A stretch of DNA of 64,000 nt, taken from positions 64,001 through 128,000 of IMG/VR virus record IMGVR_UViG_3300031867_000007, one strand, 5' to 3'. The notes below the pieces were generated by a model. That model saw nothing but the letters and a program-made list of their open reading frames with translations, was not told the origin of the DNA and did not search any database. Of this stretch, positions 11,815-44,934 are shown piece by piece (positions within the stretch are counted from its first letter, which is position 1; each line of letters begins with the position of its first letter). This DNA comes from a virus. Taxonomy: Duplodnaviria; Heunggongvirae; Uroviricota; Caudoviricetes. The position numbers and the translations under genes are program-made.

Positions 11815-11849
11815 TTTATACCCTCCCTACTTATAATAATTTGATGCAT

Positions 11850-12403
11850 ATTAGCCATCCTTCTGAATGTTTCCCGGCGGCAACCACGTGGAGGTTTGCA
11901 TCATATACTACCGCCATTTGAAGTTGTTTGAGGAGTCATTTCTAAAACCTCACTCAGTCTTCTCCTGAGTTGATAGTCCGATAACGCAGATACTATTTAC
12001 CACGATACTTATACTACTCTAAGCATGGAGCTCTGGTCTACCTTTCCAGAAAGGGAAACTACTCTTTTATTAATCGCTCAAGTTCTCCCATTGCGATAGA
12101 AATTTTTCCCGCGGGTTTGCTAGGTTTTATGTTTTTGTCCTAGCTATAACGAGTTTATGTACACTCCCCGTCAGTTTTTTGATTGAGTTCTTTTATATCC
12201 TGTCGTTCAATCAACCAACAGCGAAGGTTTATCATTGTTCTTAGTACAAACACTAGCCTACAAAAGCTTAAACTAATCCCTATTCAGCCTTGTTTTGGGA
12301 CAAGGTCGAAATCAGTTTTTGAAGCCTTAACCCTTGCGGTGGTTACAAGCGTTGCCGCAATCGCCGCCATCTTATATTTAACGACCTAGATGAATCAGTC
12401 AAG
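11850..12403 (-). ncRNA. large structured ncRNA candidate (ROOL/GOLLD class possible)
   Basis: About 550 nt, GC-elevated, no credible ORF, own TTGATT/TATAAT promoter. Confidence 0.5.
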
Positions 12404-24202: not shown

Positions 24203-24288
24203 TGGTGGGTAATTAAGGACTCGAACCTCCTAATTTTATGATAGCAAATTTATAGTCTGCCGCGACTCACCACCTTCGCCGATTACCC
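24203..24288 (-). tRNA. tRNA-Tyr, anticodon ATA
   Basis: Cloverleaf with long variable arm; GCAGA CT ATA AA TTTGC; CCA end. Confidence 0.8.
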
Positions 24289-25291: not shown

Positions 25292-25424
25292 TTATTAATA
25301 TTTGAAGGTGGGACGGCGTACCCCACATCTCATTATAGAACTAGGTCTTATAAGCTTTGTTTCAATATTACACTCTGCCTAGCCGCGTTAGCTGCCTTTC
25401 TAACCTCTTCAAATAATTATATTT

Positions 25425-26595: not shown

Positions 26596-27558
26596 TTAAT
26601 CTTTATAAAGTGGATATTTTTTACAAATTTCTTGTACCTGTAATACTAATTCATTTTTTATTAAATTAAATTCTTCATCATTGACCTTAATACATTTACA
26701 TATTAAATATGCTATTTTACGCATATCTTCAATAACCAATCCTCTTGATGTAACTGCAGCGGCACCTAGTCTTAAACCAGATGTTACCATTTTACTTTCA
26801 GTATCAAAAGGAATTGCATTTTTATTAGAAATAATACCTATTTCTTCTAATCTTGACTCTAATTTTTGTCCATTTATTTCAGTTTTTCTTAAATCTAATA
26901 ATAGTAAATGATTATCAGTTCCTTTAGTTAAGATATCACAGCCTAAATGAATTAATTCCGCAGATAATGTTTTTGTATTTTCTACTACTCTTTTCATATA
27001 TTCTTTAAATTCTGGTTTTAAGGCTTCTCCAAAACATACTGCTTTTGCGGCAATAATGTTTTCTAGCGGACCTCCTTGAGTTCCTGGAAAGACAGCGCTA
27101 TTAATTTTTTTAGCTATTTCCACACTATTAGTTAAAATTATTCCTCCTCTAGGTCCTCTTAGTGTTTTATGTGTAGTAGATGTAATAACATCAGCGTAAG
27201 GTACAGGAGATTGATGCAATCCAGCTGCTACCAATCCAGCTATATGAGCCATATCAACCATAAAATAAATATGATTTTTTTCTATATATTCCGGAATATC
27301 GCTATCTAATAAATAATAGTCATTATAAATTGCAGAATCAATTCTTTTTTGGGCTTTATCAATTATCTCTCTTAGTTTTTTAAAGTCAATTTCTCTTGAA
27401 TATGCACTTGCTCCTGCAATAAAAATTTTTGGTTTATTTTCTACAATAAAATCTTCAAGAGCATCATAATCTATTTCATATGTTTCTGAATTAACTTCAT
27501 ATTGAATTGATTTAAAATATTTTCCACTAAAAGTTGGTTTTGCTCCATGTGTTAAATG
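26596..27558 (-). CDS. glyA: serine hydroxymethyltransferase, exon 2
   Basis: [29 protein letters not shown]. Confidence 0.95.
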
Positions 27559-28441
27559 CATTTGTTAATCTTGTGATTTCGCACAAGTTCGGACTATACC
27601 TTCTACTTAAATTGAAATCTTTTCATAATTTCATCTCTGACATATTTATTCAAAGGATACTCTAATTCTGGATTATAAGCAGTAATTCCAATATTTATAT
27701 TAGAAATTGAATTTTTTGCAACTCCATATTCTCTTGCTAATTCTCTTATTGGAACTCCACTCATAATTGCATCTTGAATTTCTTCATAATAACCATATAA
27801 TTTACCTTTTCTATTAGAACCACCATGCTCTTGAATAATTTTAGATAATAAGCTATCACTAATATTAAAATATTCTATTATTTCTTGTCTTGGTAAATTA
27901 GTATTATTATATAAATCCCAAACTTCTTCTCTATATTCAAATTTTTCATCTATATTATTTATTGGATTATAATTTTTTGTTAATTGTTCATTATAAATAA
28001 TATAATCTAAATCTTCATATTTTTTGATAATTTTTTGTTCATAATAATCAATTTGAGATTTCAAACACTCTACTTCAATATTAACTTCTATATTATCAAA
28101 TCCTATTTTATTTATCCAATTATAGATAGGTCTATCTATTTTCTTTTTAACATAACTTTTATGTGCGTACATTCTTTGCTTAATATTTGAAGTTTTTCCA
28201 ATATAAATTTCCTTTAAATTATTTTTATTTTTAAGCGAGTAAATATACATATTTCCTCTCCTTTCTAAAATTTAAGTAGCCCCTTGGTAGTCTCTGAGGG
28301 CACGCCATTACGCTTATCCCTGCTGATTGTCCAATCTTTAATATTTTTACACTTTGGTAATTAAAGCTCTAAGGAGTTTCCAGCATATTCAGGGTTTTTC
28401 TTTTATTGTATCACTACAATAGGGAAGCCAGATTAACACAA
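27559..28441 (-). mobile_element. group I intron in glyA
   Basis: Exon ends in U, intron ends in G; P/Q/R/S-like ATGCTGGAAA, AATCAGCAG, TCAGAGACTAC, AAGGTATAGTCC; splicing restores SGG|HLTHG. Confidence 0.9.
27603..28250 (-). CDS. intron-encoded GIY-YIG endonuclease
   Basis: MYIY..IYIGKT..R..H; HTH repeats. Confidence 0.85.
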   Translation of the reverse strand: MYIYSLKNKNNLKEIYIGKTSNIKQRMYAHKSYVKKKIDRPIYNWINKIGFDNIEVNIEVECLKSQIDYYEQKIIKKYEDLDYIIYNEQLTKNYNPINNIDEKFEYREEVWDLYNNTNLPRQEIIEYFNISDSLLSKIIQEHGGSNRKGKLYGYYEEIQDAIMSGVPIRELAREYGVAKNSISNINIGITAYNPELEYPLNKYVRDEIMKRFQFK

Positions 28442-28813
28442 ACCTCCCGAATTTAAAGACATTCCCATTATTGTATCTCCTGGTTTAGCAAGAGCAAATT
28501 GAACAGCAGTATTCGCAGATGCTCCTGAATGAGGTTGTACATTTGCATATTTACAATCAAATAATCTACAAGCTCTATCAATAGCAAGTTGTTCTGTTTT
28601 ATCTATTATGCGGCAGCCTCCATAATATCTTTTACCTGGATACCCTTCACTATATTTTAAAGTATGATACGATGCCTGTGCTTCTAATACTGATTCACTT
28701 GGTTCATTTTCACTTGCGATTAGCTCAAGACAATTATTTTGTCTATTATATTCTTCCATTATTAAATTATAAACTTCTTGGTCTGTTTCTTTAAGATGTT
28801 TGAATTCTATCAT
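28442..28813 (-). CDS. glyA: serine hydroxymethyltransferase, exon 1
   Basis: [30 protein letters not shown]. Confidence 0.95.
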
Positions 28814-32330: not shown

Positions 32331-32883
32331 TGGCGCCGTACACGCGATTCGAACACGCAAGCCCTTTCGAGCCAACTGCTTTGAAATATGTATTATAATG
32401 CTTTTATTACCTCCTCTATCAAATAATCCTTTGCCCAATGTACATCTTTAACAAATTTCGCATTTTTATTAGGATCTGCTATTCTTAATGTAAATTGAGC
32501 TCTTTCCTTTTCACAAGGAATTAAATAAAATTTGTTATCTCATTCAGTCATATAAAAATCAATTTGATCTGGTGTATATTTCATTGTTTTATTTCCATTT
32601 GATACAGAATGAGTTGATTTACAATTAAAAACAATAGTTTCATTTTCAACATTCCATCTTGATGTTTTTATTTGAATACGATATATTTTATTATTATAAT
32701 CTAGAATTAAATCATATCTTGCATTGTCTAAAACAGGTTTAGATATAATAAAATCATTTTCAATTAAAAACATTTGACATTTTAATTCGGTAATCGCACC
32801 TTTTTTTAAATTTTCATTCATAATATATTTTAGCATTACATATCTTATTTCAAGGCAGCTCCCTCACCACCCGGACATACGGC
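32331..32883 (-). tRNA. tRNA-Ser(TGA) split by an insert of about 468 nt near position 37/38
   Basis: 5' half ends GCTGC CT TGA A; 3' half A GCAGT, long variable arm, G73 CCA. Confidence 0.8.
32393..32836 (-). CDS. PD-(D/E)XK endonuclease (group I intron-associated type; 1 in-frame TGA)
   Basis: KG..TE..P..DN.RYDLI..RIQIKT..Y...IDF. Confidence 0.85.
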
Positions 32884-32891
32884 ATATTATA

Positions 32892-33390: not shown

Positions 33391-33448
33391 CCAAGTTTCT
33401 TAGTAAGAACACCCTTCGCCACGAGAAGGCGAACTTGGTTCGAAGGAC
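33391..33448 (-). ncRNA. HDV-like (theta) ribozyme in tRNA 3' trailer
   Basis: P1 GTCCTTC/GAAGGGT, P2 CCAAGTT/AACTTGG, P3 GCC/GGC, L3 TTCTCGT, J4/2 CTAA. Confidence 0.8.
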
Positions 33449-33508
33449 GCAGGGGCTGTAGGATTCGAACCCACACCCACGGTTTTGGAGACCGTTACCC
33501 TGGTTTTG

Positions 33509-34112
33509 CTTACCACTATAGTTTTCACTACCTACTGGACACTATAGTTTGTGGTCTGGAGTACATCTTCACCATATTATTTCTAACTTAGGTGTGCGAT
33601 TATCTACTCTCTACGGGCTAAAATATTATTTTATTCCCTCGGTATTGCCAGTCAAGGTTTCACCGATATCATCGCATCCACTCAAACTGTTTCCAATCTG
33701 AGGCTCCAATTGAGTAAAGTTATTTTTATAAGGTTCTAAAGCTTTTATTCCTATTGAACTACTATATTTCATAATAAAGTCTATTGGCACTATATATAAA
33801 TCTTCAGTCTCAATATCTGTTCCTATAAAATAATCTATTTCAGACTTATTATATAAATGAATTTTATATTGTCCTTGATTATGATTTATTTTTCGTACAG
33901 GAAGAACCTTCCTTCCACTATCCTTTTGAATAGTTTTAATTTGCATTTTTATTAAATAATTGTTTTTAATTGCAATACAATCTACTTTAGTATTTTCTAA
34001 TACAGGAATATATAATTCTCATTCCCTTTTTAGTAATTCCTTTTCTAGTAAATTATATCCTAATCTACCTTTAGTTATTGTGTCCACAACTTTACTCCTT
34101 TTTATTTAGCTT
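33509..34112 (-). mobile_element. group I intron in tRNA anticodon
   Basis: ATCGGTGAAA, AATACCGAG, CGTAGAGAGTAG, GAAGATGTACTCC core; terminal G; IGS TTGGAG (33704-33709) pairs across the junction. Confidence 0.85.
33626..34087 (-). CDS. intron-encoded PD-(D/E)XK endonuclease (1 in-frame TGA)
   Basis: AAGGAG RBS, GTG start; KG..KVDCI..MQIKT..Y...IDYF. Confidence 0.8.
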
Positions 34113-34213
34113 AAGACCAGTGTGCTACCATTACACTAAGCCCCTATATTAAAATTCTTTCTTTTTATATATACATTTTATTATATTTTTTTATAAAAAT
34201 CAATAAAAATTAT

Positions 34214-34288
34214 TGGCGACGTTAGGAAGTACTGATCCCCCGATCTCCGCAGTGATAGTGCGGAGATCTACCGCTGAACTATAACGCC
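34214..34288 (-). tRNA. tRNA-Asp-like, anticodon ATC, atypical T loop
   Basis: CCGCA CT ATC AC TGCGG; G73 CCA. Confidence 0.65.
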
Positions 34289-34563: not shown

Positions 34564-34648
34564 TGGAGCTGGAGGTGAGATTCGAACTCACGAAGAAAAA
34601 ATCGCCGCTTTACAAGAGCGGTCCCGTTAACCACTTGGGTACTCCAGC
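34564..34648 (-). tRNA. tRNA-Thr(TGT) with enlarged variable region
   Basis: CT TGT AA; 13-nt variable region. Confidence 0.8.
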
Positions 34649-35676: not shown

Positions 35677-35753
35677 TGGTGGAGATGAGAGAAGTCGAAT
35701 CCCCGATCTTCTGGTTGCAAGCCAGACGCTTTAACCAACTAAGCTACATCCCC
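35677..35753 (-). tRNA. tRNA-Ala(TGC)
   Basis: Cloverleaf with G3-U70. Confidence 0.92.
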
Positions 35754-35760
35754 ATATATA

Positions 35761-35886
35761 CAAGACACAAATATAATACGCGCTCTACCACTGAGCTACT
35801 TCCTCATTTGGTGAGGAAGATAGGATTCGAACCTATGACCTCGGGTACCTGTAAACCTAATATAAATATTATGCTGTATGTGTCTT
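35761..35886 (-). ncRNA. YrlA-like Y RNA (circularly permuted tRNA domain)
   Basis: T arm, acceptor stem closed by ACCAAAT, then D arm, inside an AGACACATACAGCA/TGTGTCTTG stem. Confidence 0.75.
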
Positions 35887-43680: not shown

Positions 43681-44934
43681 ATGATAAATAAAGAAACAGG
43701 TTTGCGTGAATTATGCTATGTAGTTAATATAGATGCAATAGAACCAATAATAGGTTCAGATAATTGCGAGGCTGCAGTTGTAGGTGGATGGAAAATAATG
43801 GTTAGAAAAAACACTTTTAAAGTTGGAGATAAAGCGGTATATTTTGAGATTGATTCAAAATTACCTGAAACGAAAGAATATGAGTTTTTAGCAAAAAAAC
43901 ATTATAAAGTAAAAACTCAAAAATATACATTCGGTGGAAAAGGTAATTTTATTTCACAGGGTTTATTAATGGCTTTTGATGATTGGGTAGATGAAGAAGG
44001 TAAAATTCCATCTTGGTTAGCTGCTTTAAATTTACAAAGAGCCAATGATATAGATATTACAGGTACTTTTTTAACAAACACACTTGGAGTAAAATACTCA
44101 GTTATAGAAGATAACAAAAGAAAAGCATCTGTTGATAAATATAAAAAAATGGCACAAAGACATTGGAAATTATTTAAACATAATAAAATTATTCAATGGT
44201 TATATGGGAAAAATTGGGGTAAAAAATTATTATTTTTCTTTTTAGGTAATAAAGCAGATATAAAAGCTTCGTTCTGGCCTGATTGGGTAATAAAAACTGA
44301 TGAAGAAAGAGTACAAAATTTACCTCAACTATTTCCTCCAGATGATACTGAATGGTTTGTAACCGAGAAAATAGATGGAACATCAACGACTTTTACAATG
44401 AAAAGAGCGAAAAGAAACAAATATGATTTTTACGTATGTTCTAGAAATGTATGTTTTGATAAACCTGAAAAAGAACAAAAACTATTTTATGAAAATAATG
44501 TCTATACAGAAATGGCAATAAAATATAACGCAGAAGAAGTTTTAAAAAATATATTAGATATTCATAATGATATTGAGTTTGTTACTATACAAGGAGAGAC
44601 ATATGGAAAAGCAATTCAAAAAAGAGATTATGGTATGGATACTATAGATTTTAATGCATTTAACTTAATTTTTGGTTATAAAAATGGAGAAACAAAAAGA
44701 TTTAATCCAAGAGAAATGAAAGAAATATTAACAAATACATACAATATACCCTGCGTTCCAATTTTAGATGAACATTTTAAATTACCAAATTCAATAGATG
44801 AAATGATAACTTATGCAGATGGAAATTCAAAAATAGATGGAGAGTATAGAGAAGGTGTTGTATTAAGAACCTCAGATGGAGTAAATTCATTTAAAGCAGT
44901 TTCAAATGAATATTTATTAAAAAAAGGAGAATAA
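43681..44934 (+). CDS. ATP-dependent RNA ligase (Rnl2/DRB0094-like, N-terminal OB fold)
   Basis: YFEIDS, SQGL, KTDEER, EKIDGTS, QGE.YG, REGVV, FKAVS. Confidence 0.88.
   Translation: MINKETGLRELCYVVNIDAIEPIIGSDNCEAAVVGGWKIMVRKNTFKVGDKAVYFEIDSKLPETKEYEFLAKKHYKVKTQKYTFGGKGNFISQGLLMAFDDWVDEEGKIPSWLAALNLQRANDIDITGTFLTNTLGVKYSVIEDNKRKASVDKYKKMAQRHWKLFKHNKIIQWLYGKNWGKKLLFFFLGNKADIKASFWPDWVIKTDEERVQNLPQLFPPDDTEWFVTEKIDGTSTTFTMKRAKRNKYDFYVCSRNVCFDKPEKEQKLFYENNVYTEMAIKYNAEEVLKNILDIHNDIEFVTIQGETYGKAIQKRDYGMDTIDFNAFNLIFGYKNGETKRFNPREMKEILTNTYNIPCVPILDEHFKLPNSIDEMITYADGNSKIDGEYREGVVLRTSDGVNSFKAVSNEYLLKKGE

Follow-up and report, generated by a model that had tools for sequence, protein, structure and literature searches.

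The window analysed here is a stretch of 64,000 nucleotides (positions 64,001 to 128,000) of the 143,829-nt virus record IMGVR_UViG_3300031867_000007. On the minus strand of this record, inside a cluster of 16 tRNAs called by ARAGORN and a tmRNA, we identified a tRNA gene that is split by an intron and contains two anticodon arms in tandem. The gene, its parts and the elements beside it are, from 5' to 3':

34175-34203, minus strand: possible promoter of the sigma-70 type, 30 nt before the tRNA, matching the consensus at 9/12 positions
34113-34145, minus strand: 5' exon of the tRNA-Trp(UCA), with the acceptor 5' strand (A1), the D arm, A26, the 5' strand of the UCA stem and C32-U33-U34
33509-34112, minus strand: intron of 604 nt after U34, ending in G (ARAGORN, i(34,604)), with a candidate group I-like core within the last 160 nt
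33626-34087, minus strand: predicted intron-encoded PD-(D/E)XK endonuclease ORF, 153 aa under code 4, with one in-frame TGA
33508-33450, minus strand: 3' exon of the tRNA-Trp(UCA), from the exon/intron parse
33500-33508, minus strand: remainder of the UCA loop on its 3' side, and 3' strand of its stem (putative decoding arm), from the parse of the spliced RNA
33499-33496, minus strand: first 4-nt linker, between the UCA arm and the CCA arm
33479-33495, minus strand: second anticodon arm, with a 5-bp stem and the 7-nt loop CU-CCA-AA, in the variable-arm position
33478-33475, minus strand: second 4-nt linker, between the CCA arm and the T arm
33474-33458, minus strand: T arm, from the parse of the spliced RNA
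33457-33450, minus strand: acceptor 3' strand (U72) and discriminator G73; the CCA end is not fully encoded
33391-33448, minus strand: predicted HDV-like (theta-type) ribozyme, beginning 2 nt past G73

In silico removal of the intron yields a 92-nt tRNA-Trp with a canonical UCA anticodon arm, for which a five-arm cloverleaf is both the minimum-free-energy and the centroid structure (-31.9 kcal/mol). Splicing and folding thus confirm the anatomy given in a preliminary description of this DNA, in which UCA and CCA arms lie in tandem and the CCA hairpin takes the place of the variable arm. The acceptor branch is 7/5, the D stem has 4 bp, and the bacterial tryptophan identity elements A1-U72 and G73 are present. 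Both loops have the canonical form CU-NNN-AA, and A and G flank each stem. The 5' exon ends at the same place in 30 intron-bearing relatives, and in 20 intron-less relatives the exon is contiguous with the 3' exon. Folded alone, the 3' exon is of unremarkable stability (z -1.56), and the case against a chance origin of the CCA arm therefore rests on the relatives.

The label assigned by ARAGORN to the spliced gene is tRNA-SeC(tca), i(34,604). We rejected this assignment because a tRNA-Sec has a 13-bp (8/5) branch and a long D stem, compared with the 7/5 branch and 4-bp D stem found here, and because selenocysteine involves the recoding of UGA only at special sites, whereas TGA is used genome-wide in this phage (58 of 92 long ORFs). 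An allo-tRNA was rejected as well, as it requires an 8/4 or 9/3 branch. A class II tRNA of the Ser, Leu or Tyr type would have 0-3 unpaired bases and a free loop, in contrast to the 4-nt linkers and the family-invariant loop observed. In its role as a UGA suppressor the tRNA belongs to a known kind; its two-arm architecture fits none that we found.

The intron has a U before the 5' splice site and a terminal G, features of group I introns, and its insertion site is common to 30 relatives. Motifs resembling the group I consensus, a candidate core, lie at 33664-33558 in the intron; no clear P1 pairing emerged, and a search of the intron against Rfam returned no group I match. The endonuclease ORF is open under code 4, and its 106-aa code-11 part matches Pfam PF11645 (E 1.8e-08). 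The predicted ribozyme would form P1 from 33448-33441 and 33417-33410, and P2 from 33438-33432 and 33397-33391. By our own inspection, this HDV-like P1/P2/P3 layout begins within 5 nt of the tRNA end, as a theta ribozyme requires, and at a related locus (L760) P1 is kept, by eye, with different base pairs. Rfam returned no ribozyme match at 33391-33448, and a regular expression for the ribozyme found 0 among the loci of the two-loop scan described below, although L760/L018 displays one by eye. A theta-type ribozyme at this position would remove the 3' trailer of the tRNA. Sigma-70-type promoter sites are weak evidence, with 7 found compared with 4.6 +/- 2.2 in shuffles. From the sequence, we infer that the intron would be spliced and the tRNA expressed in this genome.

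Other RNA genes and interrupted genes were identified in the window, all on the minus strand. The anticodon loop of a tRNA-Ser(UGA) gene (32336-32885) contains an insert that carries a second PD-(D/E)XK ORF and lacks any visible group I core. The two ends of this insert pair into a long stem. In the 3' copy of the loop the triplet is UCA, and the splice register therefore decides between tRNA-Ser(UGA) and a second UGA reader. Three tRNA genes are odd: one with an AUA anticodon and a weak fold (24203-24288), one with an AUC anticodon, an extended stem and an aberrant T loop (34214-34288), and one with a UGU anticodon and a long-armed, class II-like body (34564-34648). The serine hydroxymethyltransferase gene (26596-28813) is in two pieces flanking a GIY-YIG ORF, probably an intron. 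Searches against Rfam identified a skipping-rope RNA above the cut-off (25300-25414), an HDV-F-prausnitzii ribozyme (11842-11915) and a weak YrlA-like match adjoining the tmRNA (35751-35865).

The phage genome uses TGA as a tryptophan codon. Code 4 gives a coding density of 77%, compared with 58% under code 11 and 61% with TAG open; opening TAA gives 75%, yet the ORFs are then short and numerous. In-frame TGA codons occur in the genes for terminase (4), portal (2), tape measure (15) and endolysin (2), and there are 0 in the two DNA polymerase frames. The late block is enriched in TGA (TGA/TGG 86/56) and TGA is rare in the replication block (9/40), a distribution that fits a standard-code host. 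Such a distribution is described for recoded phages of standard-code hosts in the accessible part of Borges et al. (bioRxiv 10.1101/2021.08.26.457843). Searches of the record, which is 97% complete, gave no match to the TrpRS/TyrRS family (PF00579, profile search) or to a release factor, and no separate tRNA-Trp(CCA) was found in this genome. A second intron-containing 'SeC' call, from a relaxed ARAGORN run (genome positions 81763-82562), was rejected as AT-rich noise.

IMG/VR was scanned with a pattern of tandem loops in which the CCA loop was fixed, and this two-loop scan retrieved 80 loci with 29 distinct 3' halves. Of these loci, 20 are double-arm genes lacking an intron, and 30 have an intron, inserted in every case at the same position following U34; one has no findable 5' exon, and 29 are not double-arm (chance matches or ordinary tRNAs). 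Among the intron-less genes the nearest (L210) has both arms, with 6 differences in 92 positions. In 18 hand-picked 3' exons, 96.7% of the cells of the CCA stem are paired and 4 of the 5 pairs have changed on both sides; the CCA loop is invariant across these exons, which come from loci retrieved with that loop in the pattern. In 40 double-arm tRNAs the CCA stem varies freely with its pairing kept (36-39 of 40 sequences paired at pairs 2-5), and the tryptophan identity of the acceptor is also kept (G73 in 39/40, U72 in 38/40). The bodies of double-arm tRNAs differ widely in the D arm and linkers. It had been suggested that the second arm is a duplication left by the acquisition of an intron-bearing UCA arm. 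The 20 intron-less double-arm genes refute this origin, and the compensatory changes in the stem and the very different bodies with the same loop also argue against it. An ordinary tRNA-Trp(CCA) lies 5-400 nt away in 5 of 16 scanned neighbourhoods of double-arm genes, suggesting that the double arm arose by local duplication and that selection kept it afterwards.

A scan of GTDB gave 17 loci, two of them double-arm (L210 and L217). By its ORFs, judged by eye, L210 is phage-like, and L217 matches the phage type of the two-loop scan of IMG/VR; no chromosomal double-arm tRNA was found in GTDB with that pattern. In a separate scan, 51 of 64 loci are single-arm UCA tRNAs. Matches to PF00579 occur in 0 of 32 double-arm records and 3 of 22 single-arm records, a weak contrast (p 0.06), and the profile search gave no TrpRS match in 19 of the 22 long single-arm records. 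A regular expression for TrpRS motifs gave nothing in the locus flanks, even near two loci whose records do have a PF00579 match, and these counts are therefore taken from the profile search. Overall, the double-arm design is real, conserved and widespread in phages, and it is apparently undescribed. We found no description of a natural second anticodon arm in the open literature, and within the literature searched the earlier statement that no natural example had been described held up.

Open-arm scans, in which the extra arm was left unspecified and part of the anticodon stem was fixed, provide samples in which related sequences are counted separately. The UCA set, with 120 of about 190 stretches listed, contains 56 distinct cloverleaves, 12 Sec-like and 44 others, two of which look false and were retained in the count. 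Among the matches listed, CCA is present in the extra-arm loop of 40 of the 44 (shuffles: mean 5.8, maximum 12), YUG in 6 and GAU in 1, and 1 of the 12 Sec-like tRNAs has an extra-loop CCA. In one real-looking UCA tRNA (L186), the loop of the long arm has no CCA. The amber set (120 of about 210 stretches listed) contains 34 long-arm tRNAs, and among these listed matches CUG or UUG, the anticodons of Gln, occurs in the loop of 26 (shuffles: mean 5.3, maximum 10) and anywhere in the arm of 30, with CCA in the loop of 1. About 1,800 stretches match the UAU pattern, which makes the Ile version far more abundant than the Trp form; 121 of them (L410-L530) were listed, 71 of which parse as long-arm cloverleaves. 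Among the matches listed, GAU, the usual anticodon for Ile, lies in the extra loop of 63 of 66 (shuffles: mean 8.3, maximum 15), falling to 8 of 66 if an A is demanded after GAU, where most have U; CCA is counted in 17 of 66 through the overlap of CCA with GAU, and in 3 if a U is required before it.

The extra loops differ in form among these systems. Second loops of double-arm UCA tRNAs keep a 7-nt anticodon-like shape and have G at position 32 in 20 of 40. Ile extra loops among the matches listed have mostly A33 and U37, one such 7-mer being common to 31 of 66, and the arms of the amber (Gln) tRNAs often have short stems and small loops. In the control, ordinary tRNA-Trp(CCA) with long arms, the extra arm has CCA in 0 of 67 distinct tRNAs; long arms are rare in this class (107 stretches compared with about 6,800 short). 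In the Trp, Gln and Ile systems, the normal anticodon is thus displayed in the extra loop only of tRNAs whose working anticodon is altered. Two UCA tRNAs (L118 and L182) have U73 and a divergent CCA-bearing arm. Loci L531-L637 represent 67 distinct phage tRNAs whose anticodon is CCA and whose long variable arm is free in sequence, most of them with G73; they could be tRNA-Trp of a class II-like kind, or they could read UGG while charged with serine.

Published activities can be re-read by arm class. According to the accessible portions of PMC12636597, 213 phage suppressor tRNAs were screened in E. coli lysate with no synthetase added, with reference values of 5,403 RFU (no tRNA) and 69,124 RFU (wild type). 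E. coli is only a stand-in for the host of the phage studied here. We classed the 31 UCA rows of the published table by eye as 13 double-arm and 12 single-arm, and excluded 6 as non-UCA cloverleaves. The double-arm tRNAs are all active (13/13, 26,699-58,947 RFU), whereas the single-arm tRNAs have a median of 8,653 RFU, with 2 of 12 above 25,000 (28,797 and 50,795); tRNAUCA-19 and tRNAUCA-22 are among the inactive ones. The Fisher p of 2e-5 for this contrast is overstated, since the sequences are related, and the contrast is confounded by acceptor stems that the double-arm tRNAs also have in common. By our count of the table, 11 UCA rows reach at least half of the wild-type value, compared with 9/31 in the paper, the thresholds differing slightly. 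Judged by eye, the entry tRNAUCA-5 (55,739 RFU) is identical to the gene described here over the stretch that begins with the first linker and ends with the T arm. Tryptophan was inserted by 13/13 UCA tRNAs analysed in that study (PMC12636597), of which we infer that at least 6 are double-arm, and both of the single-arm tRNAs that have a phage TrpRS as partner showed no activity in its absence.

In the same table, 18 of 20 amber rows with an intact YUG-A arm gave at least 37,693 RFU, and none of the 5 long-arm rows without YUG-A exceeded 15,990 RFU. A near pair of amber tRNAs gave 63,316 and 15,990 RFU; the two differ in their last loop bases, plus other positions. Two arm-bearing amber tRNAs are weak (2,892 and 10,163 RFU), and about half of the short-arm amber tRNAs are active (71/136, derived from a count in PMC12636597). 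The amber tRNA tRNACUA-44, active in the lysate (56,217 RFU), has a Trp-type body and a CCA arm, and has the same scaffold number as tRNAUCA-7. A term search found neither 'variable arm' nor 'variable loop' in the main text of PMC12636597, and no 'variable' in its PDF supplement.

Given these analyses, we propose that the two arms divide the work of one anticodon: the UCA arm likely reads UGA, and the CCA arm likely serves as a recognition handle for the host TrpRS. The major identity elements of TrpRS are G73, the first pair and the anticodon, as summarized in the accessible part of PMC9976931. A UCA anticodon loses C34; in the simplest account, the CCA arm would restore this contact with TrpRS and leave the UCA arm free to decode. 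After maturation, which would proceed through self-splicing of the intron and trimming by the ribozyme, TrpRS would bind A1-U72, G73 and the CCA loop. The acceptor end and the extra loop would be contacted by the same enzyme, and the extra arm would therefore probably swing on its 4-nt linkers toward the usual position of the anticodon. Since GlnRS and IleRS, which read their anticodons, are both monomers, one and the same enzyme probably holds the acceptor end and takes the extra arm into its anticodon pocket. On the ribosome, decoding would fall to the UCA arm, with the CCA arm projecting as the long arm does in tRNA-Ser or tRNA-Leu. The RNA may well change its conformation as it passes from charging to decoding. 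The CCA arm is at most helpful and is not required, as single-arm UCA suppressors exist. A UCA variant of B. subtilis tRNA-Trp functions with its own TrpRS (PMC2965240, accessible part), and some single-arm UCA phages may infect hosts whose TrpRS accepts U34.

The alternatives, taken together, seem rather unlikely. The strongest, itself improbable, is that another anticodon-sensing host factor reads the extra loop, which would act as a decoy or shield against a nuclease, as a dock for a modifying enzyme or as a ligand of a T-box (trpS, ileS). Any reader of the normal anticodon would conserve that triplet, and the 7-nt anticodon-like shape of the extra loop fits such a reader; however, the loop is absent from 67/67 long-arm CCA tRNAs, the would-be targets of the nuclease. 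A decoy for anticodon nucleases had been offered earlier, but cutting in cis would damage the suppressor itself, and a decoy fails to explain why the triplet corresponds to the amino acid, and does so only where the tRNA has an altered anticodon. The T-box riboswitches of trpS or ileS are possible partners that could bind the extra loop as ligand; against them, the activity contrast arises in E. coli lysate, which is not known to contain T-boxes.

We consider it quite improbable that both arms decode, one reading UGA and the other UGG through a conformational switch, as had also been put forward. The canonical form of both loops here, with A and G flanking each stem, and the absence from this genome of a findable separate tRNA-Trp(CCA) would suit such a switch. 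The ordinary tRNA-Trp(CCA) genes in 5/16 neighbourhoods, G32 in 20/40 second loops, the A33 and U37 of most Ile loops and the short-stemmed, small-looped arms of many Gln tRNAs all argue against it. In addition, U34 can read UGG by wobble anyway. What stands of the earlier interpretation is thus the anatomy and the lack of a known natural example; of the explanations it offered, one is refuted and the other two are unlikely, and a charging handle was absent among them.

There is similarly little probability that the arm is mere bulk, stabilizing the fold or tuning EF-Tu or A-site binding against RF2, with a loop inherited from duplication. The existence of phage tRNA-Trp(CCA) whose long arms have other sequences (96/107 loci) indicates that a long arm is tolerated or favoured, but bulk leaves unexplained the invariant loop on a free stem, the unrelated bodies and the amino-acid-specific triplet. 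Very improbable is a precursor that becomes an ordinary single-arm tRNA, either by losing one of its arms or by re-ligation after cuts in the two loops. An RNA ligase is encoded in the window (43681-44934), but the hybrid stem of the arm 1 5' strand and the arm 2 3' strand would have 1-4 pairs, never 5 (n=40), and unprocessed in vitro transcripts of relatives are active in E. coli lysate (PMC12636597, accessible portions). An assembly chimera, the artefact anticipated in the preliminary description, or a neutral relic of local duplication is extremely improbable: the search of relatives gave 50 double-arm loci in independent contigs, which refutes a chimera at the family level, L018/L760 has an identical layout with one compensated pair in the CCA stem, and 3/3 metagenome loci found via the intron protein alone carry the CCA arm, two of them seemingly the L018 and L038 contigs.

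The reading of the CCA arm as a charging handle may extend beyond tryptophan. We are inclined to regard these genes as a general phage class of split-identity tRNAs, with decoding and charging on two anticodon arms, in which the changed anticodons UCA, CUA and UAU are accompanied by displayed CCA, CUG or UUG, and GAU, and the second arm swings into the anticodon pocket of the host synthetase. If so, such tRNAs would break the rule that a single anticodon serves both ribosome and synthetase and would constitute a portable change of the genetic code without a new synthetase. This is a possible answer to a question open in the phage recoding literature, namely how suppressor tRNAs are charged without a phage synthetase. 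The two-arm design would also explain why many such genes have been missed or filed as tRNA-Sec, and it suggests a design rule for engineered tRNAs, in which the amino acid is kept and the decoding anticodon is freed.

Several known systems resemble this tRNA. The phage opal suppressors of Borges et al. (10.1101/2021.08.26.457843) are alike in the UCA anticodon, code 4, late-gene TGA and lack of a phage synthetase. The authors suppose that host synthetases charge the suppressors and that odd structures conceal many. Suppressors were detected there in only 35% of code 4 genomes. In contrast, the accessible part of that work mentions no second arm, and the gene here is intron-split and called tRNA-SeC by ARAGORN. 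By our reading by eye, 13/31 'UCA' entries of PMC12636597 carry the CCA arm and suppress UGA; there they are binned as non-orthogonal, and the arm is never mentioned in the portions accessible. Theta ribozymes (PMC10879173) likewise have an HDV-like fold starting from the 3' end of a tRNA in recoded phages, as predicted here. No code 4 genome is among those with a suppressor-linked ribozyme in the accessible part of that paper; the predicted theta-type ribozyme at 33391-33448 (minus strand), found also at L760, lies on a code 4 opal suppressor, a combination not observed there.

Long variable arms are also found in tRNA-Sec, class II tRNAs (Ser, Leu, Tyr) and allo-tRNAs, and tRNA-Sec has a UCA anticodon and G73 as well (PMC7609411, PMC5389517, accessible parts). 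The tRNA described here differs in its 7/5 branch, 4-bp D stem, 4-nt linkers and invariant anticodon-like loop, and its relatives insert tryptophan. Two anticodon-like hairpins read by a synthetase are present in one RNA in the E. coli thrS operator (PMC9976931, accessible part), but this is an mRNA leader without an acceptor end, neither charged nor decoding. The nearest in principle are the engineered pseudo-anticodon V-arm tRNAs of Mukai 2020 (PMC7590224, accessible part), amber suppressors in which a variable-arm hairpin recruits the anticodon-binding domain of a synthetase. These are synthetic, and the modest gain depended on an extra domain fused to the synthetase, whereas the tRNA described here occurs naturally and apparently needs no modification of the host enzymes.
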